This document shows positions 40-36,530 of a DNA stretch of 64,000 bases, in pieces (position 1 is the stretch's first letter; the number at the start of each line of letters is the position of its first letter). Under the pieces are notes generated by a model. It worked only from the letters and a program-made list of their open reading frames with translations, was not told the DNA's origin and made no database searches. Location of the stretch: assembly GCA_020832905.1 (NCBI GenBank), contig JAJHRG010000001.1, forward strand, positions 64,809 to 128,808, in the 5' to 3' direction. The stretch comes from Thermoproteota archaeon. Its GTDB lineage: Archaea; Thermoproteota; Methanomethylicia; Methanomethylicales; Methanomethylicaceae. Made by a program: the position numbers and the translations under genes.

Positions 40-3357
<3,318 letters not shown>

Positions 3358-3361
3358 AATA

Positions 3362-3601
3362 TCACCATGGAACTACATATCTATATGCTATAGCTTCTCC
3401 TGCAATTTCACTTTTTCTTATAATCATTATTACATCACCTGGTTTAGCACCTAAAGCTTTACACATAGGATCATTCTTTCTTATCCATGGAAGTTGTTCT
3501 TTTCTTATACCATAGGTCTTTTTAAGGTTTTCTACTTCTTCTTTAGAGAGAATTCTAGCTTTAGGAACTAATTCATGTTTAAAAATATCAAACTTTACCA
3601 A
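3362..3601 (-). CDS. rpoH: RNA polymerase subunit H (Rpo5)
   Basis: FKHELVPKARILSKEEVENLKKTYGIRKEQLPWIRKNDPMCKALGAKPGDVIMIIRKSEIAGEAIAYRYVV matches the RpoH family. The six-frame ORF extends to 3730 but would overlap the tRNA-Tyr gene. The likely start is the TTG at 3601, giving about 80 aa, the canonical size. Confidence 0.7.
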   Translation of the reverse strand: MVKFDIFKHELVPKARILSKEEVENLKKTYGIRKEQLPWIRKNDPMCKALGAKPGDVIMIIRKSEIAGEAIAYRYVVPW

Positions 3602-3673
3602 TAACTCATCACCAACCCGAGTAGAAAGTAGGCATATTTTGAGAAATTTTTCTAGTTTATAAAGTTTCCTATT

Positions 3674-3813
3674 GTGGTCCCGCCCGCCGGATTTGAACCA
3701 GCGACCACCCGGTTTATGCCCAGCTGGCACAGATTCATCTTAATGCCATTTGGCAATATCATCTGTGCGACAATGGTCTACAGCCGGGCGCTCTACCGCT
3801 GAGCTAGGGCGGG
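3674..3813 (-). tRNA. tRNA-Tyr (anticodon GUA) with an intron of about 64 nt at the canonical 37/38 position; CCA is encoded
   Basis: Read on the minus strand: CCCGCCC-UA-GCUC-AGCGGUA-GAGC-G-CCCGG-CUGUAG[intron]A-CCGGG-UGGUC-GCUGG-UUCAAAU-CCGGC-GGGCGGG-A-CCA. The C1:G72 pair is the archaeal/eukaryal Tyr identity element. A further 3 nt on each side (GGU/ACC) can also pair. Confidence 0.8.
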
Positions 3814-5225: not shown

Positions 5226-6740
5226 TTGAGTAAAGAAAAAGTAAGATTAGCATATTCTGCTCTATATCTAGCATTACAAGGATTAATATCTTCAATACTT
5301 GGAATAATTTATTTTGCATTTATTGCAAGACTTTTATTAGAAGTATCAGATTTAGGAAAAATAGTATCAATTTCAATATTTTCTGATCTCTTAGTAACAT
5401 TAACAACACTTTCAATTTCATCAGCAATTACTAAGTATTTTTCTGAAAGTATAGGCAAGGGAGATAAGGAAGAAGCATATGGTATTATAGCAAATGGTTT
5501 TAAGTTTTTACTACTTTCTTCTATATTAAGTAGTATAGTTTGTATAATATTTGCTAAACAAATATCTTTAGTTTTTTTAAAAAATTCAGAAGATTTCTTT
5601 TATTTTTGGTTATTATCAATTCATATATTCTTTATAATTCTATCTCAAGTATTTACTTCTGTAATATATGCAACACAAATGTTTAAAGAATATTTTATCA
5701 TATACACATTATCAAATTCTACCAAGACATTTGTATCAATAATATTATTGAAAATAGGATTTGGAGTAATTGGAGTAATAATTGCTTGGATTACTAGTAG
5801 TTTCTTACTTCTTGTAGTTTCAATAATATTTTCTAAAAATTTATTAAAAATAAGAAAAGGATACTTTCCATTTAAAACTATGTTAAAGTATTCCATTCCA
5901 ATTTATGGTTCTTCTATTATTTCTTATTTTCAATCAACCATAGATAAGTACATATTATTGTTATTAATAGATCCAGAGGCACTTGGATTATATGCTCCAG
6001 CAGTAACTGCTATGGCATATGTAGCTGGATTTTCAGGATATATTACATCAGCAATTTTTCCAAAAATATCAGAACTTTTTGGTAAAAAAGATTTAATTAC
6101 TATGTCTAAAAGTCTAAAGGAAGCTTCTAGATATTCTTCTATAATTTATATTCCATTAGCATTTGGCTTAGCTGCTGTTGCTATTCCTACAATAGATCTT
6201 TTTGCAGGAAGTCGATATTTAGAAGGAGGATTACCATTAATGATATTAGCATTAACATCAATAATATTACCAATTAATAATACCTTAGGAATTTATTTTG
6301 CTTCAATTGGTAATACTAAGGTATTTTTTATTTCATCATTATTTTCACTTATTATGGAAAGTATTTTATCACTAATGATAATTCCAAAATTAAGTATAAT
6401 AGGTGCAGCATTAAGTAGAGGTTTATCAGTATTTTTTAGTTTTATTGTTTTTTTAATTTACTTAGATAATAAAAAAATTATAGATTGGAAGACTTTTTCA
6501 AAGATTTCTTTTGTTTCATTATTAATGAGTATAGTAGTATATTGTTTAACATTAATTATTTATTCTAAGTATTTTCTTCCAATTTATATAATGATAGGTG
6601 GTATAATCTATATTATATTAATACTCAAATTTAGAATTATAAATAAAAATGATATTGAGCTTATCTTAAGCTTATTTCCAGAAAAAATTAGAAATAAACT
6701 TAAGATAATAATTCATAGATTTTCTCTTTTATCCAGTTAA
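5226..6740 (+). CDS. Polysaccharide/oligosaccharide flippase of the MOP (Wzx/MATE-like) superfamily; possibly an AglR-like N-glycosylation flippase
   Basis: 504 aa with about 12-14 predicted TM helices and a glycine-rich hydrophobic composition typical of Wzx. TTG start. Adjacent to a GT2 gene. Confidence 0.6.
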   Translation: MSKEKVRLAYSALYLALQGLISSILGIIYFAFIARLLLEVSDLGKIVSISIFSDLLVTLTTLSISSAITKYFSESIGKGDKEEAYGIIANGFKFLLLSSILSSIVCIIFAKQISLVFLKNSEDFFYFWLLSIHIFFIILSQVFTSVIYATQMFKEYFIIYTLSNSTKTFVSIILLKIGFGVIGVIIAWITSSFLLLVVSIIFSKNLLKIRKGYFPFKTMLKYSIPIYGSSIISYFQSTIDKYILLLLIDPEALGLYAPAVTAMAYVAGFSGYITSAIFPKISELFGKKDLITMSKSLKEASRYSSIIYIPLAFGLAAVAIPTIDLFAGSRYLEGGLPLMILALTSIILPINNTLGIYFASIGNTKVFFISSLFSLIMESILSLMIIPKLSIIGAALSRGLSVFFSFIVFLIYLDNKKIIDWKTFSKISFVSLLMSIVVYCLTLIIYSKYFLPIYIMIGGIIYIILILKFRIINKNDIELILSLFPEKIRNKLKIIIHRFSLLSS

Positions 6741-7698
6741 AATTACCATTAATGATATTCTTTTTGTGAAAAATTTCTTCATAAATTTTTCTACCAAATT
6801 CATCATCATTTTTAACCTTTAATATTATAGAATTTGGATGTAATTTTCCTTCTTTTATTAATCCATCTTTATCACCATCAATTATTCCTATAATTGGAAT
6901 ATCAAATCTTTCTAAGATGTCTCCTACAATAGATGTAGTATCATCACCTACTGTTACAGCACAACATATACCTTCTTCTATAAACTTAAAAATATCATAA
7001 CCAGCATGTTCTATATAAGCAATTTTCTCTTTTTTAACCATAGGAATATATGCTCTTTTACTTACTTCATCTCTTAATAGAGAAATTGAATCAATTTTTG
7101 CATTTTTTAAATCAATTTTTCCAATTTTCTCAATACCATGTTTTTTAATCTCTACACCTTTTATATCAATAATATTACCATTTTCACAAACTATAACTAC
7201 ATTATCATCTCTAACTTTTCCAACTATTATACCATTAATTAATAACCAATCTCCAATTTCAGTTGCTAATACTTTCCTATATTCTCTATTTCCATCTATC
7301 CAATAATTATTTCCAAAATCTATTCCTTTCATTAAATTAAATTTTAAATCATTAGCAATTCTTTTAGCTATGTCTTTTATTTCTTCATTAATATAAGCAA
7401 CAGTATGAGTATTTGTTTCTATTCCCATTATAGGATATTTAATTTTCTTTGAAAGATGCCAAATATCAGCAAGCATTCGATTAACTGATGTTGTATGTGT
7501 TGCACTAATAACTAAATCAAAATTCTCTTTATTTATCCAATCTACAAATCTTTCTTTTAAGATAATAACATTACTAATATTATTATCCATCATAGCAATT
7601 CTTCCCATAGTTCCTGCTACAACACAACATAACTCTCCATAATTTTTTATAACATCTATAATACGATTTGCCCAACCATTATCAAAAATTTTTGACAT
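6700..7698 (-). CDS. Conserved hypothetical protein of unknown function
   Basis: Long ORF with no family recognisable by eye. The start is probably the ATG at 7698 (MSKIFDNGW...) rather than the upstream TTG of the ORF track. That choice leaves room for the divergent GT2 promoter. Confidence 0.45.
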   Translation of the reverse strand: MSKIFDNGWANRIIDVIKNYGELCCVVAGTMGRIAMMDNNISNVIILKERFVDWINKENFDLVISATHTTSVNRMLADIWHLSKKIKYPIMGIETNTHTVAYINEEIKDIAKRIANDLKFNLMKGIDFGNNYWIDGNREYRKVLATEIGDWLLINGIIVGKVRDDNVVIVCENGNIIDIKGVEIKKHGIEKIGKIDLKNAKIDSISLLRDEVSKRAYIPMVKKEKIAYIEHAGYDIFKFIEEGICCAVTVGDDTTSIVGDILERFDIPIIGIIDGDKDGLIKEGKLHPNSIILKVKNDDEFGRKIYEEIFHKKNIINGNFNWIKEKIYELLS

Positions 7699-26904: not shown

Positions 26905-26935
26905 TTTAAGGCGCAACAAATATATTTAGGAAAGA
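26905..26935 (+). promoter_or_regulatory. Putative rRNA operon promoter (BRE/TATA-like AAATATATTTA) about 25 bp upstream of the start of the GC-rich leader
   Basis: An AT-rich TATA-like element at 26918-26928 lies just before the abrupt switch to a GC-rich structured leader at about 26945. Confidence 0.35.
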
Positions 26936-27111
26936 AAATAAAAAACTTGGCACGAACTGGCAATATCAACTTACGCCATAGCTCCGGCGGCGCTGGTCAG
27001 ACCTTACGGACGAAAGTCCGAGGGATGAATGACCGCCCTCCAGCTATGGCAATAATATGAGGACTTGAACAAACCAATGTGTAACACCATTGGTATGTTC
27101 AAGTCCTATAT

Positions 27112-27173: not shown

Positions 27174-28858
<1,685 letters not shown>

Positions 28859-28909: not shown

Positions 28910-28993
28910 ATAATGCTAATTTTTATGCAACTGAGGAGTTCTTACTCCTCAGTGAAGGGCGTAGTAAGGTTTATAACCTTACGATGATCGCCA

Positions 28994-29040
28994 TGCATAG
29001 GTCTTAGTCCCTTAGCATCTACCAGATTTTGGAATACTGG
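28994..29040 (+). other. 5' strand of the 23S rRNA processing stem (pairs with 32121-32168)
   Basis: CAUGCAUAGGUCUUAGUCCCUUAGCAUCUACCAGAUUUUGGAAUACUGG is complementary to the sequence following the 23S 3' end. Confidence 0.7.
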
Positions 29041-29193
29041 GCCTGACACACAGACGCCGGTTGGTGGATGGCTCGGCTCAGGCGCCGACGAAGGGCGCGG
29101 CAAGCGGCGATATGCTCCGGGGAGGCGCATGCAGCCTTCGATCCGGAGATCCCCGAATGGGACTTCCTGCCATGGGTTAATAGCCCATGGCGC

Positions 29194-29233
29194 TCGGGAA
29201 AAATAACCGGTATTACCGGTTATTTTTCCCGAG
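29194..29233 (+). repeat. 40-nt perfect palindrome (AT-rich hairpin) inside 23S domain I
   Basis: CUCGGGAAAAAUAACCGGUAUUACCGGUUAUUUUUCCCGAG. Its centre is GGUAUUACC. Confidence 0.8.
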
Positions 29234-29288
29234 TGGGAACCCCCCGAACGGAAACATCCAAGTAGGGGGAGGAAAAGAAACCAAAAGG

Positions 29289-29331
<43 letters not shown>

Positions 29332-29560
29332 GAATCCCTTTGCGATAAGCAAAGGGAGATGTAGGGTTCGGACACCCCCGTTAAAACCCTTCCTAGGGAA
29401 GCCGAAGTGGCCTGGAAAGGCCCGCCGTAGAGGGTGATAGCCCCGTAGGCGTAACCTAGGGGGGTTTGGGGGTGTTCCAGAGTACCACGCCTTGGTTGTG
29501 GCGTGGGAAGGTGGGAGTTACTAACTCCCAAGGCTAAATACGTCCTGAGTCCGATAGCGA

Positions 29561-29594
<34 letters not shown>

Positions 29595-29810
29595 GAGAGG
29601 GGAGTGAAAAGAGCCTGAAACCAACCGGCTACGTAGTGACGTGGCACGAAAGGGATGATTTCTACCGAAGGAGCCCTCCGAGAGGAGGTAGTACGAGGTA
29701 GAAGGACCGGTGTCACGTCTTCCGTTTTGGAGCACGGCCCAGGGAGTTCACCGGAGTGGCGAGCCTAAGGGGATCAACCCCGTAGGCGTAGGGAAACCGA
29801 CAGCCCGCAT

Positions 29811-29843
29811 CCACATTAAGTGGGTATTACCCACTTAATGTGG
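29811..29843 (+). repeat. 33-nt perfect palindrome (AT-rich hairpin) inside the 23S
   Basis: CCACAUUAAGUGGGUAUUACCCACUUAAUGUGG. Its centre, GGUAUUACC, is the same as that of the hairpin at 29194. Confidence 0.8.
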
Positions 29844-30503
29844 AGAGGGGCGGGGTCCGACGAGGGCCCGAATAGTCACTCCGGTGATAACCCGAAACCG
29901 AGCGATCTAGGCCTGGGCAGGGTGAAGCCAGGCGAAAGCCTGGTGGAGGCCCGCAGGGGTTCTGACGTGCAATTCGTTCCTCTGACCCAGGCCTAGGGGC
30001 AAAAGACCAATCAAGCTCGGTGATAGCTGGTTCCCCCCGAAGTGGGTCGCAGCCCAGCCCGCCCGGAGGTTGCTGGCGGGGTAGAGCTACCAATTGAGGG
30101 TGCGTGGGCCGAAAGGCCCAGCCCCTCTTTTGAACTCCGAACCTGCCAGCTCCGTAGATGGGCGGAGACGGGTTCCACGGGAAAAGCCTGTGGGCCGAGA
30201 GGGGAACAACCCAGACCCGGGTTAAGGCCCCTAAATGCTGGCTTAGTGTTAAGCCAAAGGGCGTCCCGGATCTGAGACAGCTGGGAGGTAGGCTTAGAAG
30301 CAGCCATCCTTTAAAGAGTGCGTAACAGCTCACCAGCCGAGATCCGGGGCCCCGAAGATTTTCGGGGCTAAGCCAGCTGCCGAGACCCGGGGGTAGACCC
30401 CGTCTGGGGTCTGCCGGTAGGGGGGCGCTCCGGTTGGGCAGAAGCTGGGCCGAAAGGTCCAGTGGACCAACCGGAGGTGCGGATCCTGGGGGTAGTAACA
30501 GCA

Positions 30504-30536
<33 letters not shown>

Positions 30537-31882
30537 CAGGGTTCCTCGGCAACGGTCGTCGGCCGAGGGTCAGCCGGTCCCTAAGGCGGCACATAGCTTG
30601 TCGCCGCCGATGGGGAAACTGGTTAATATTCCAGTGCCTTGGAGATCAGATGCGCTAACTCCTTTGCCTCGGGATAGGCCGAGCAGAGCCGCCGCTCTGC
30701 CTAACCTATCTAAGCCCGGGGAGTACCGTAATGGTGAGAACCGGGCGAAGATAGGGATGGGCCGACCGTAAGGTCGGTTCGGCCGATTCCTGGGGCCCAT
30801 GAAAAGGGAGTTAGTAAGAGATCTCCAAGACCGTACCGAGAACCGACACAGGTGCCCTGGATGAGCAGTCTAAGGCGTGTCGGGAGCACCCCAGGTCAGG
30901 GAACTCGGCAAATTGGCCCCGTACCTTCGGTAGAAGGGGTGCCTGGGTCTCTGGGCGAAAGCCTGGAGACCTAGGTCGCAGTGACAAGGGGGAGGCGACT
31001 GTTTAATAAAAACATAGGTCCCCGCAAGCCCGTAAGGGTGTGTACGGGGGCTGAATCCTGGCCACTGGCGGTCCGTGAAACCCGGGTTCAACCGGGCGAA
31101 GCGCCGCCGAAGGCCGGGAGTAACTCTGACTCTCTTAAGGTAGCCAAATGCCTTGTCGGGTAAGTTCCGACGTGCATGAATGGATCAACGACCTCCCCAC
31201 TGTCCCGACCTGGGGCCCGGTGAAGCCACCTCTTGGTGAAAAGTCCAAGTACTTCCAACGGGGGGATAAGACCCCGTGGAGCTTTACTGCAGCCTGCCGC
31301 TGGGATACGGCCATGATTGCAGAGCGTAGGTGGGAGTTGATGAAGTAGCTCCTCCGGGGGCTATGGAGACGCCAATGTAACACCACCCTTTCATGGCTGT
31401 ATCCCTTACCAGGCGGAAGCCTGGGACAACGGTTGGTGGGCAGTTCGGCTGGGGCGGCACGCCCTTGAAAAGATATCAAGGGCGCCCAAAGGTCGGCTCA
31501 GGCGGGTCAGAACTCCGCCGTAGAGGGCAAGGCCAAAAGCCGGCCTGATTGGACCCTTAACAGTAAGGGGTCCAAAGGCGAAAGCCTGGCCTAGCGACCG
31601 CTCGTGTCCCTTTTAGTAGGGGCCGGGCATGACAGAAAAGCTACCCCGGGGATAACAGAGCCGTCGCGGGCGAGAGTTCACATCGACCCCGCGGTTTGCT
31701 ACCCAGATGTCGGCTCTTCCCATCCTGGGGGTGCAGCAGCCCCCAAGGGTGGGGCTGCCCGCCCATTAAAGGGGAACGTGAGTTGGGTTTAGACCGTCGT
31801 GAGACAGGTCGGACTCTCCCTGTTGGAAGTGCTGGCTGCCTGAGGGGAAGGTGCGCCCAGTACGAGAGGAACGGCGCGCCGC

Positions 31883-31914
<32 letters not shown>

Positions 31915-32120
31915 TCGCCGGGCAGCCACGCCGCACGGGTTAACCGCTGAAAGCATCTAAGCGGGAAACCCTCCCCGAGACCAGGCAGCCATTCCACTCC
32001 CATTTGGGAGTGGACGAGGGCTCCCGTAGAACACGGGGTTGATGGGGCGGGGGTGTAAGCACCAAGGCCGAAAGGCCGAGGTGTTCAGCCCGCCGCTCCC
32101 AATCGCCCGAGGTGCAGGTC

Positions 32121-32168
32121 CAGTATTCCAAAATCTGGATGAAACTAAGGGATTAAGACCTATGCATG
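32121..32168 (+). other. 3' strand of the 23S processing stem
   Basis: Reverse complement of 28994-29040. Confidence 0.7.
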
Positions 32169-32199
32169 GCTCTAAGAAAAAATCCTAATTTTTGTTAGT

Positions 32200-32216
32200 T
32201 AACCTTATAAAATTTT
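32200..32216 (+). promoter_or_regulatory. TATA-box-like element (CTTATAAAATT) about 25 bp upstream of the RNase P RNA
   Basis: AT-rich element at the canonical archaeal -26 distance from the first nucleotide of the 32234 helix. Confidence 0.4.
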
Positions 32217-32233
32217 TATTCTTAAGTTCTTTT

Positions 32234-32566
32234 GCCAGGAGTAAGCAGCGAGTTGGTGGGTAGCCGACGGGCCCCATATAGGGGCCTGAGGAAACTCCAC
32301 CCTCCACGTAGGACCGCAGCGCCGTGAGGCGCAGGGGGAGACCCCTGCTCTTGGCACAGAAACGAGACGTGCGGAAGTGGATGTCTATGATGTGAAGAGT
32401 TATCTCTTCACTGAGTATACTTCCGCTTTCGTTGAAACGGCCAAGCTGCGGGGAGAAAGGGCAAATAGGAACCGATGAGGCCTACGCGAGGTTCGGGTAG
32501 CCCGAATAGTCGAATGCTACCTAAAACAGAAGGTGGGTTACGGCCAACACGCTGCTTACTCCTGGC
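32234..32566 (+). ncRNA. rnpB: RNase P RNA (archaeal type A-like)
   Basis: GC-rich 333-nt structured RNA closed by a 17-bp terminal helix (GCCAGGAGUAAGCAGCG / CGCUGCUUACUCCUGGC). P4 strands: GAGGAAACUCCACCCUCC (with the conserved bulged U) and ACAGAAGGUGGGUUACGG, which covaries against the E. coli ACAGAACCCGGCUUA. There is also GGGCAAAUAGGAACC, a P11/12-like CAAAUAGG. Confidence 0.8.
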
Positions 32567-32614
32567 ATTTATCTTTGAGAAAAATATTAATTATAAGTTT
32601 GAAAAGTTAATACT

Positions 32615-33427
32615 ATGAAAAAACATTTGATAATATTACTACTACTTTTCATTATCATAATACCATTAAGAGCACAAAACATAACAAATGCAGAAATTAA
32701 AATCTATAGAGATGGAATTACTCATGTAAAAATATCCATAGAATCTGATGAAATAACTCCTTATGTTATATTACAATTATTCTCTACAAATATTACTAAT
32801 ATTATAGCATATAATGAGAAGAAAGAACTTTTAGATTATAATATTGAAAATAATACAATCATAATTTATTCATTAGGATCTACTATAATTACACTAGAAT
32901 ATGATACTAGTGATTTAACTTATAAGCAAAAAGCCTTATGGACTTTTAGAATCAATACAACATTTCCAGTAAGTGTAATTTTTCCTGAAGATGCAATTAT
33001 TATGGGTATGAGTAGTATACCAAATTCTATTACTATAGATAATAGAACAATTAAAATGATTTTCTCTCCTGGATATTATGAAGTTAATTATGAAGTACCA
33101 ATAACTCAACTACCAATACAACAAGGTATTACTTTACCAATAAATATTATGATAATTATACCTATTATAATAATTATTATAATAATCATTATTATCATAA
33201 GATTTACAAAAAAGAGAAAAATTGAAGAAAAATTAAAAGATGATGAAAAGAAAATAATAAATTATTTAAAAAATAAGGGAAATAGAGCTTTAGAAGCTGA
33301 ATTAAGAAAAGCATTTCCTGAAATACCTAGAACAACTATGTGGAGATTATTAAGAAGATTAGAAAAACAAGGAATTATAGAAATAAAAAAAGTAGGAATG
33401 CAAAATTTAGTTGAACTTAAATTGTAA
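32615..33427 (+). CDS. Membrane-anchored protein: signal peptide, extracytoplasmic domain, one poly-Ile TM helix, cytoplasmic winged-helix (MarR/TrmB-like) domain
   Basis: N-terminal MKKHLIILLLLFIIIIPLRA. A TM helix IMIIIPIIIIIIIIIIII followed by a positively charged stretch. The C-terminal NYLKNKGNRALEAELRKAFPEIPRTTMWRLLRRLEKQGIIEIKKVG forms a wHTH. Confidence 0.6.
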   Translation: MKKHLIILLLLFIIIIPLRAQNITNAEIKIYRDGITHVKISIESDEITPYVILQLFSTNITNIIAYNEKKELLDYNIENNTIIIYSLGSTIITLEYDTSDLTYKQKALWTFRINTTFPVSVIFPEDAIIMGMSSIPNSITIDNRTIKMIFSPGYYEVNYEVPITQLPIQQGITLPINIMIIIPIIIIIIIIIIIIRFTKKRKIEEKLKDDEKKIINYLKNKGNRALEAELRKAFPEIPRTTMWRLLRRLEKQGIIEIKKVGMQNLVELKL

Positions 33428-34741: not shown

Positions 34742-36043
34742 ATGGAAGGACCATATCATATTGGAATTGATGATACTGATTCATTAACATATGGATGTAC
34801 AACTTATGTAGCAGCAAATATAATTGAAGAATTAATAAAAGAAGCAAATTTTATAGACTATCCAAATTTAATTAGGTTAAATCCTAATATTCCATGGAAA
34901 TCAAGAGGAAATGGTGCAATTTGCTTAAGATTTTACTCAAAAAAGAATGAATATGAATTAATGGATTTAGTATTAAAATATGTTGAAGAATATAGAGATA
35001 AATTAGATATAAAAAATCAGCCAGGAATTGTAATTCTTAAAGGTGATGTACCTAATATTATAAAGGAATTTGGAAAAAAAGCACTTAATGATGTAATAAC
35101 ATTAGATGAAACAATATCATTACTTAAGAAGATTAATACAATATATTATGGAATAAAAGAAGGAAGAGGATTAATAGGTGCACTTGCTGCAATAGGTAAT
35201 ACATTAGAAGAAGATCATACATTTGAATTAATAGTTTATAGAAAAAACTATAATAGAAAAAGAGAAGTAGATATAGAAAGTGTTATAAAATTTGATAGAG
35301 AGACTTTTCCTTTTACATTTAATAATATAGATTATGAAAGTGGTAGATTATTAATTACACCTCATGGTACAGATCCTGTACTATTTGGAGTAAGAGGAGA
35401 AGATCCTGAAATTTTAAAAATATCACTTAAAATTATAAAATTTAAAGATGCAGATAAATGGGTAATTTATAGAACAAATCAAGGAACTGATGCTCATTTT
35501 TTTGAATTTAAGAAAATAAAATCTCTAAAGCCATATCAAGTAGCAATTATAAAAGGAATAGTGAGTAAAAAACCAGTCTTTATAGAAGGAGGACATGTTA
35601 TATTTTCTATAGCTGATGATAGTGGAGAAATAGATGTAGCATGTTATGAACCCTCAGGAAATTTGAGAATGATAGTAATGGAATTAATGCCAGGAGATAA
35701 AGTAATAGTATATGGAGGAGTAAGACCATTAAATAATAAAATTACAATAAATTTAGAGAAATTAGAAATATTAGAACTAATTAATGAGCAATATATTAAT
35801 CCTATATGTCCAAAATGTAAAAAGTCTATGAAATCTGAAGGAAAAAATAAAGGATATGAATGTAAAAAATGTAAAATAAAAGTAAAAGAAAAAATGAAAA
35901 TTACAATTGAAAGAAAAATAAAAGAAGGAATATATCTTCCACCTCCAAGATCTATGAGACATTTAACAAAACCACCACAAAGATATGGAATGGAAAAAAG
36001 AAAATGGAATGGAATTGTAGAAGAGTTTTTTGGAAAATTTTAA
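34742..36043 (+). CDS. tiaS: tRNA(Ile2) 2-agmatinylcytidine synthetase
   Basis: The N-terminal HIGIDDTDSLTYGCTTYVAANIIEEL...LIRLNPNIPWKSRGNGAICL closely matches the TiaS kinase-like domain. C-terminal zinc ribbon CPKCKK...CKKCK. Confidence 0.85.
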   Translation: MEGPYHIGIDDTDSLTYGCTTYVAANIIEELIKEANFIDYPNLIRLNPNIPWKSRGNGAICLRFYSKKNEYELMDLVLKYVEEYRDKLDIKNQPGIVILKGDVPNIIKEFGKKALNDVITLDETISLLKKINTIYYGIKEGRGLIGALAAIGNTLEEDHTFELIVYRKNYNRKREVDIESVIKFDRETFPFTFNNIDYESGRLLITPHGTDPVLFGVRGEDPEILKISLKIIKFKDADKWVIYRTNQGTDAHFFEFKKIKSLKPYQVAIIKGIVSKKPVFIEGGHVIFSIADDSGEIDVACYEPSGNLRMIVMELMPGDKVIVYGGVRPLNNKITINLEKLEILELINEQYINPICPKCKKSMKSEGKNKGYECKKCKIKVKEKMKITIERKIKEGIYLPPPRSMRHLTKPPQRYGMEKRKWNGIVEEFFGKF

Positions 36044-36438: not shown

Positions 36439-36530
36439 AGCGGGGTGGGGTAGCCAGGTTATCCCGCGGGGCTCATATGTCCCGCTGGGAAACCCCGAGA
36501 TCGGTGGTTCAAATCCACCCCCCGCTACCA
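36439..36530 (+). tRNA. Initiator tRNA-Met (CAU) with a short intron of about 13 nt at 37/38; CCA is encoded
   Basis: AGCGGGG-UG-GGGU-AGCCAGGUUA-UCCC-GCGGGG-CUCAUA[UGUCCCGCUGGGA]A-CCCCGAG-AUC-GGUGG-UUCAAAU-CCACC-CCCCGCU-A-CCA. The A1:U72 pair and the three G:C pairs in the anticodon stem are archaeal initiator hallmarks. Confidence 0.75.

Follow-up and report, generated by a model that had tools for sequence, protein, structure and literature searches.

The window, by which we mean the whole 64 kb stretch of DNA that was analysed, carries on its forward strand an rRNA operon with rnpB, the gene for RNase P RNA, directly behind it. RNase P RNA is the ribozyme that removes the 5′ leaders of tRNAs. 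The archaeal 16S rRNA (27175-28858, +) was located by an Rfam scan, and the 23S rRNA, the upstream neighbour of rnpB, was recovered at 29038-32122 (+) as a full-model match to RF02540 (2902 bits). The predicted full RNase P RNA transcript, of archaeal type A and 333 nt long, was placed at 32234-32566 (+) from the Rfam core, the flush terminal helix and the positions of the promoter and a T-tract. The 180-nt spacer between 16S and 23S proved free of tRNA genes, and the whole 64 kb free of 5S rRNA; Rfam and tRNA scans agreed on this over the window, as had a sequence-only reading made beforehand. The G+C content was approximately 26% for the genome and 57-61% for the RNAs, and such an AT-rich genome with GC-rich RNAs would be the pattern usual for a hyperthermophile.

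The two arms of the 23S processing stem (28990-29045 and 32115-32170) form a 56-nt inverted repeat that is 89% complementary, and the joined arms folded with −97 kcal/mol (z = −16.9). The 3′ arm (32115-32170, +) was delimited by the inverted repeat, the fold and motif conservation, and has CCTATGCATGG (32159-32169) at its distal end. Because the stem occupies these positions, the terminal helix of the RNase P RNA, P1, begins 63 nt past it; counted from the Rfam 3′ end of the 23S rRNA (32122) the distance is 111 nt. The figure of 115 nt from stem to RNA given in the sequence-only reading was corrected in this way.

Relatives were collected with two patterns. A CR-IV/CR-V pattern yielded 66 loci from species-representative genomes, and a clade-specific pattern yielded 29 metagenome loci. 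Both patterns lie inside the RNase P RNA, and the sample of archaea is biased thereby. The nearest named relative was locus L029, from a metagenome-assembled genome (MAG) of Candidatus Methanomethyliaceae SKYB85, with 87% identity in the RNase P RNA, 90% in the 23S and 93% in the 16S rRNA. The nearest metagenome loci, L081 and L083, were 95% identical to the window in the RNase P RNA. On these identities the organism is regarded as an uncultured member of the Thermoproteota with kinship to Methanomethylicia-like MAGs.

The rRNA operon has a separate and different promoter (AACAAATATATTTA, approximately 26915-26928), which is kept in L081. Two hairpins stand in the rRNA leader. The first (26975-27050) is GC-rich, spans about 76 nt and has an internal loop; the second (27060-27107) is a near-perfect 20-bp hairpin. 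L081 has kept the leader sequence too, and the fold of the region gives z = −8.9. For the first hairpin, the H/ACA sRNA family Pab19 scored 24.5 bits (E = 0.036), short of its gathering score of 55; the region may be a processing element or a guide RNA embedded in the leader.

The 16S rRNA contains, just after ...ACCAGCCCCGCGAG, an AT-rich insertion (27657-27860) with a length of about 190 nt. It is closed by an 18-nt inverted repeat (27686-27703 / 27847-27864, 94% complementary) and is probably an rRNA intron. The 16S rRNA of L081 is of similar length and may share the insertion; that of L029 is about 160 nt shorter and apparently lacks it. In 23S domain I, a perfect 20-bp hairpin (CTCGGGAAAAATAACCGGTA / TACCGGTTATTTTTCCCGAG, 29193-29233) is inserted relative to the Rfam model. 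The 23S genes of L081 (approximately 2868-3671), L083 (approximately 6125-6928) and L089 (approximately 3029-3780) carry an insertion of about 750-800 nt at the equivalent of window position 31134. This is a probable intron of protein-coding length, from which the window 23S differs in having none.

Further downstream lies the gene for TiaS, the tRNA-Ile2 agmatidine synthetase (34742-36043, +; four Pfam domains). An intron-containing tRNA with a CAU anticodon (36439-36530, +), given no assignment by ARAGORN, was found 400 nt downstream of it and may be tRNA-Ile2, the substrate of TiaS itself. Another tRNA, with an intron of about 60 nt (3678-3813, −), was detected by Rfam (52.7 bits) and missed by ARAGORN.

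Identity and fold of the RNase P RNA

In the Rfam scan of the whole window the archaeal type A model RF00373, whose gathering score is 84, matched 32248-32552 (+) with 230 bits (E = 1.9e-67). The match was full-length, covering model positions 1-288 of 288. A permissive Rfam scan of 32100-32700 (E up to 10) returned no SRP RNA and no other credible family, the runner-up families staying below 19 bits (E > 0.1). The sequence-only reading had named the feature an RNase P RNA and had proposed a covariance-model comparison of RF00373 with SRP RNA. RF00373 prevailed, all blocks from CR-I to CR-V were aligned, and the SRP model went unmatched. SRP RNA or another RNA family was rejected on the strength of the RF00373 match together with the lack of an SRP match, either at gathering thresholds or at E up to 10.

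The conserved blocks are named after Chen and Pace 1997. CR-I (GAGGAAACUCCACCC, 32288-32302, +) contains the P4 5′ strand with the bulged U32296; it was placed by the Rfam alignment and is invariant in relatives. CR-V (ACAGAAGGUGGGUUAC, 32526-32541, +) contains the P4 3′ strand and was placed by the Rfam alignment and the sequence. Within these blocks AAC[U]CCACC (32293-32301) pairs with GGUGGGUU (32532-32539) entirely by Watson-Crick pairs around the bulged U, so that the P4 pairing described in the sequence-only reading holds. P4 departs from the Rfam consensus (AAgUCCcCC / GGgGGcUU) in two pairs, each altered on both strands, g-c to C-G and c-g to A-U. These double changes were judged against the Rfam consensus only, P4 being invariant in the five sequences aligned. 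P4 barely varies in the fetched set because the genome-scan pattern fixed its 3′ strand and the metagenome matches are close relatives.

In the specificity domain, the CR-II block (GCACAGAAACGA, 32354-32365, +; J11/12) aligned to conserved consensus positions, and the CR-III block (GUUGAAACGGCC, 32431-32442, +) was placed by the Rfam alignment and is invariant in the aligned relatives. Their cores (ACAGAAA for CR-II and UGAAACGG for CR-III) flank P12. The P12 apical region (32387-32416, +) contains the GA-rich, kink-turn-like motifs AUGAUG (32387-32392) and CUGAGU (32411-32416), corresponding to the consensus GAuGAUg...cuGAg; these are presumably bound by L7Ae. The CR-IV block (UAGUCGAAUGC, 32507-32517, +) was placed by the Rfam alignment and aligned relatives.

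The segment CAAAUAGG (32462-32469, +) had been read from sequence as a P11/12-like block. The Rfam consensus structure line instead assigns it to the catalytic domain, where it comprises the end of P15, the A-rich strand of the internal loop and the start of P16. In that structure, the surrounding sequence (GGGCAAAUAGGAACC...GGUUCGGGUAGCCC) aligns with a nested hairpin made up of P15, the internal loop and P16. This element is reduced or absent in type M.

The feature is a canonical archaeal type A RNase P RNA gene, in which all sequence-level defining features tested here were found. RNAs of this type act on pre-tRNA and assemble with the proteins Pop5, Rpp30, Rpp21, Rpp29 and L7Ae. It resembles type A RNAs such as those of Pyrococcus and Methanothermobacter in the full model, the bulged-U P4, CR-II and CR-III, the P15/P16 hairpin and the P12 kink-turn-like motif. 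It differs from them by 14 additional base pairs in P1, by the two P4 pairs and by its position directly behind the 23S gene. The type T (minimal) RNase P RNA of Thermoproteaceae likewise comes from Thermoproteota with 16S-23S operons, rRNA introns and no linked 5S, but is reduced, whereas the RNA in the window retains the full specificity domain (P10-P12, CR-II, CR-III).

Gene order around rnpB in related archaea

The gap between the 23S 3′ end and the Rfam start of rnpB was measured for loci with both genes on the same strand. It was 125 nt in the window, 123 nt in L081 and L083, 74 nt in L029, 72 nt in L089, 115 nt in L030, 148 nt in L073/L087, 140 nt in L090/L095 and 95-102 nt in the Bathyarchaeia loci L002, L043, L013 and L025. 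Tight adjacency (72-148 nt) was thus present in about 11 distinct relatives, drawn from Methanomethylicia-like Thermoproteota and one Bathyarchaeia clade. Other relatives were looser, with rnpB on the same strand 0.4-4.6 kb downstream of the 23S gene and unrelated genes between them (M32 carboxypeptidase, DUF2284, CbiM/ABC transporter, phosphoglycerate mutase). The inserted genes are unrelated to RNase P or rRNA, and a functionally related gene between the two was discarded on these grounds. In L094, rnpB was convergent with the rRNA operon. No 23S gene was found in the upstream sequence at hand for L055, L071, L072 and near-duplicates, or L091, nor in that for many Bathyarchaeia, Methanobacteriaceae and Hadarchaeota.

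When a rough neighbour-joining tree was built from only about 300 nt of RNase P RNA, on the pattern-biased sample, the tightly linked loci came out in several separate subclades. Such a distribution agrees with an adjacency that was ancestral and was later interrupted by insertions. The adjacency is a conserved gene order and no oddity of a single genome. The sequence-only reading had called the linkage unusual; it is not peculiar to one genome, given tight adjacency in several lineages, and what stands of that description is that no earlier report was found. The literature search for rnpB linked to an archaeal rRNA operon was incomplete in its coverage, and its empty result is weak evidence of novelty.

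The linked Methanomethylicia-like and Bathyarchaeia loci (L029, L081/L083, L002, L013, L025, L043) share with the window the P4 variant, the 16S-23S-rnpB order, the TATA distance and the motif CCTATGCAYGG, and differ from it in a shorter P1 extension (5-11 bp). L029 is, by estimate, apparently less AT-rich than the window outside the rRNA genes. CCTATGCAYGG, which in the window occupies the distal end of the 23S stem (32159-32169), was also seen in L029, L030, L002, L013, L025, L043, L081 and L089, and is thus common to Methanomethylicia-like and Bathyarchaeia loci though the remaining spacer differs.

Exact-protein look-ups with TiaS and FecCD identified the same organism in four other assemblies (JGI, Logan, ENA), and the sequence is present in JGI 3300045883, SRR10916987, SRR25522540 and ERZ27247216. 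The stretch from the 23S end through the spacer and rnpB to the start of the downstream gene showed 100% identity with the window in three of the assemblies, which are independent and come from different samples. Three independent assemblies of this organism (L096, L097 and L098) break inside the 23S 3′ end, their starts corresponding to window positions 32034-32083, and in these rnpB and the downstream genes are the sole link between the rRNA operon and the remaining genome.

Probable promoter, terminal helix and predicted transcript ends

A TATA-like box (CTTATAAAA, 32204-32212, +) occupies −30 to −22 relative to G32234. The interval between box and predicted start (32213-32233, +) contains a T5 tract (32213-32217) and a T4 tract (32230-32233), and ends in a T(−1)/G(+1) pyrimidine-purine step at the predicted start. 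For comparison, 35 non-redundant loci were searched for their best TTTAT-type 8-mer over the 60 nt that precede the first base pair of P1. In about 80% of these it began at −32 to −25, with or without a nearby 23S gene; examples are TTTATTAA (L029), TTTATAAG (L081), TTTATCTT (L047, L067), CTTAATCA (L002) and CTTATACC (L051). Archaeal TATA boxes are centred approximately 26-27 nt upstream of the start site. The fixed distance of the box, taken with this spacing, puts the start of transcription roughly at the outer 5′ end of the extended P1. The element had been noted from the sequence as an rnpB TATA element about 25 bp upstream, and with an equivalent at the same position in most of the related loci, CTTATAAAA is probably a real rnpB promoter. 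On the other side of the gene, a T-rich tract (TTTATCTTT, 32568-32576, +) lies directly 3′ of P1 and is a candidate rnpB terminator. T-rich sequence was found at the same place after P1 in several relatives.

P1 is formed by GCCAGGAGTAAGCAGCG (32234-32250, +), which is perfectly complementary to CGCTGCTTACTCCTGGC (32550-32566, +) over 17 bp, or 18 bp if T32233-A32567 is counted. Proceeding inwards, a conserved A.A mismatch is followed by five further pairs (GTTGG/CCAAC). The outer 14 nt of the 5′ strand (32234-32247) are outside the Rfam model, and the helix reaches 14 bp past it. The minimum-free-energy fold of the 333 nt was closed by this helix (−172.5 kcal/mol, z = −9.9). No bulge-helix-bulge motif was found in P1, the only irregularity being the conserved 1x1 A.A mismatch; a processing stem of the kind that encloses the 16S and 23S rRNAs was rejected for P1, a helix without bulges.

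The sequence-only reading had described a perfect 17-bp helix, long for a P1, and the comparison bears this out. The flanks of the Rfam core pair in all 33 non-redundant relatives, extending P1 by 2-15 bp (median 5). The extension is longest in the window (14 bp, or 15 with the T-A pair), followed by L081, L083 and L030 (11 bp). The extension sequences differ, being GCCAGGAGTAAGCA in the window, GGGGCAAGCGG in L081/L083, GGGCTGGATGG in L030 and TGGTTG in the linked Bathyarchaeia. Between the window and L081 a T-A pair of P1 becomes C-G, a compensatory change, and L083 has G-U. That pairing is kept while the sequences change is a good indication that the extension belongs to the RNA. Among relatives P1 varies in length, which argues against a fixed mechanistic requirement. 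The long P1 is a variable, lineage-specific extension and no distinct device, and stabilisation or protection of the RNA ends at high temperature would be its most economical explanation.

These observations suggest the following route. Initiation from the TATA box at 32204-32212 would fall at about G32234, where P1 begins, and transcription would stop in the T-rich tract just past C32566, where P1 ends. The primary transcript would thus already be flush-ended and fully paired, and should need little or no end trimming. On this model rnpB is most likely a short transcription unit of its own. Its adjacency to the 23S gene would have been inherited, being common to several related Thermoproteota lineages and broken elsewhere by insertions of unrelated genes. 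The 17-bp P1 would be a lineage-specific lengthening of a helix that is extended by 2-11 bp in all relatives, and plausibly, in a hyperthermophile whose genome is very AT-rich, stabilises the RNA and protects its ends. We consider it quite probable, on the sequence evidence, that this account is correct as a whole: a type A rnpB transcribed as its own unit, with inherited 23S adjacency and a P1 lengthened in its lineage.

Other explanations and significance

The main competing explanation is that rnpB is a third cistron of the rRNA operon, its RNA coming mostly from read-through of the strong rRNA promoter and being cut at the base of the long P1, with the TATA box in a minor or auxiliary role. 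Co-regulation or read-through co-transcription had been raised in the sequence-only reading. The shared strand and the very short distance from the 23S gene at around a dozen loci speak for this. The rRNA polymerase must also transcribe at least the 3′ arm of the 23S stem, which ends 33 nt before the TATA box of the window. In L029 and L089 the TATA box starts 1 nt past the 23S stem and only about 30 nt separate the stem from P1, and no T run of at least 4 was found between the 23S stem and rnpB in L002, L013 and L025. In those genomes it is therefore plausible that some transcripts read through into rnpB. Oligo-T is a termination signal for archaeal RNA polymerase. In the window, unlike those spacers, a T5 tract between the 23S stem and the TATA box (32189-32193, +) is a candidate terminator of the rRNA transcript. 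Together with the T5 and T4 tracts at 32213-32217 and 32230-32233 it stands ahead of rnpB; these tracts could stop the rRNA transcript, but runs of this kind are to be expected by chance at 26% G+C.

The TATA-like box at a fixed distance from P1, in linked and unlinked loci alike, argues that the promoter is the general route to RNase P RNA, and its conservation makes co-transcription unnecessary. Where unrelated genes intervene between 23S and rnpB in relatives, RNase P RNA evidently does not depend on the operon. The perfect P1 offers no bulge-helix-bulge site, so the splicing endonuclease that acts on rRNA stems would not be expected to release RNase P RNA from a longer transcript. With its own TATA-like box at the sequence level and no bulge-helix-bulge stem, rnpB does not look like an operon cistron. 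The spacer tRNAs and 5S rRNAs of bacterial and Euryarchaeota rRNA operons are similar in being small stable RNAs of translation on the same strand, approximately 100 nt from a large rRNA. In contrast to rnpB, with its conserved TATA box and a helix free of processing motifs, they lack separate promoters and are freed by processing. Taken together, we regard the third-cistron arrangement as unlikely; if true, it would couple the supply of RNase P RNA to ribosome synthesis. Similarly doubtful is a broader version, a 16S-23S-rnpB unit in which read-through contributes a substantial share of the RNase P RNA, P1 serves in release or end protection and possibly in circularisation, and the TATA box is a basal internal promoter. 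In that case the supply of a tRNA-processing ribozyme would be tied to ribosome synthesis.

A flush, long P1 could also hold the two RNA ends next to each other so that they are ligated into a circular RNase P RNA, its length reflecting that need. Circular junctions are reported for the SRP and RNase P RNAs of Thermococcus barophilus (bioRxiv 10.64898/2026.03.23.713588), an archaeal ligase of the Rnl3 type makes structured small RNAs circular (PMC12153264), and the predicted ends in the window are exactly flush in the 18-bp helix. For the present RNA this would be an argument by analogy with Thermococcales. The P1 extensions of close relatives measure 2-5 bp, so the length is not a conserved requirement, and a flush helix is equally explained by transcription starting and stopping at the ends of P1. 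Circularisation as the reason for the long helix is accordingly rated very unlikely.

Metagenome assemblies commonly break, or form chimeras, at rRNA operons, and three related contigs start inside the 23S gene. The identical junction in three independent assemblies is the reason for discarding an assembly chimera at the rRNA boundary, and the same gene order in many relatives agrees with that. Equally, the 230 bits of the RNaseP_arch model, with the next permissive matches below 19 bits (E > 0.1), leave scarcely any room for another structured RNA such as SRP RNA. We attach a negligible probability to misidentity of the RNA or a chimeric 23S junction. An independently transcribed type A rnpB behind the 23S gene is the reading that we prefer.

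RNase P RNA is a textbook ribozyme, and the main value of the locus is practical and comparative. Since rnpB extends 14 nt beyond the Rfam match on each side, automatic annotation can be expected to truncate P1 in this lineage. Methanomethylicia-like archaea and one clade of Bathyarchaeia have kept the 16S-23S-rnpB order, for which no report was found. In these archaea rnpB is a short single-copy anchor tying poorly assembled or poorly binned rRNA operons to the adjoining protein-coding genes. A promoter that lies directly behind the 23S stem, and in some relatives touches it, offers a compact natural case for work on how archaeal transcription terminates, on promoter occlusion, and on whether stable RNAs may be co-regulated.
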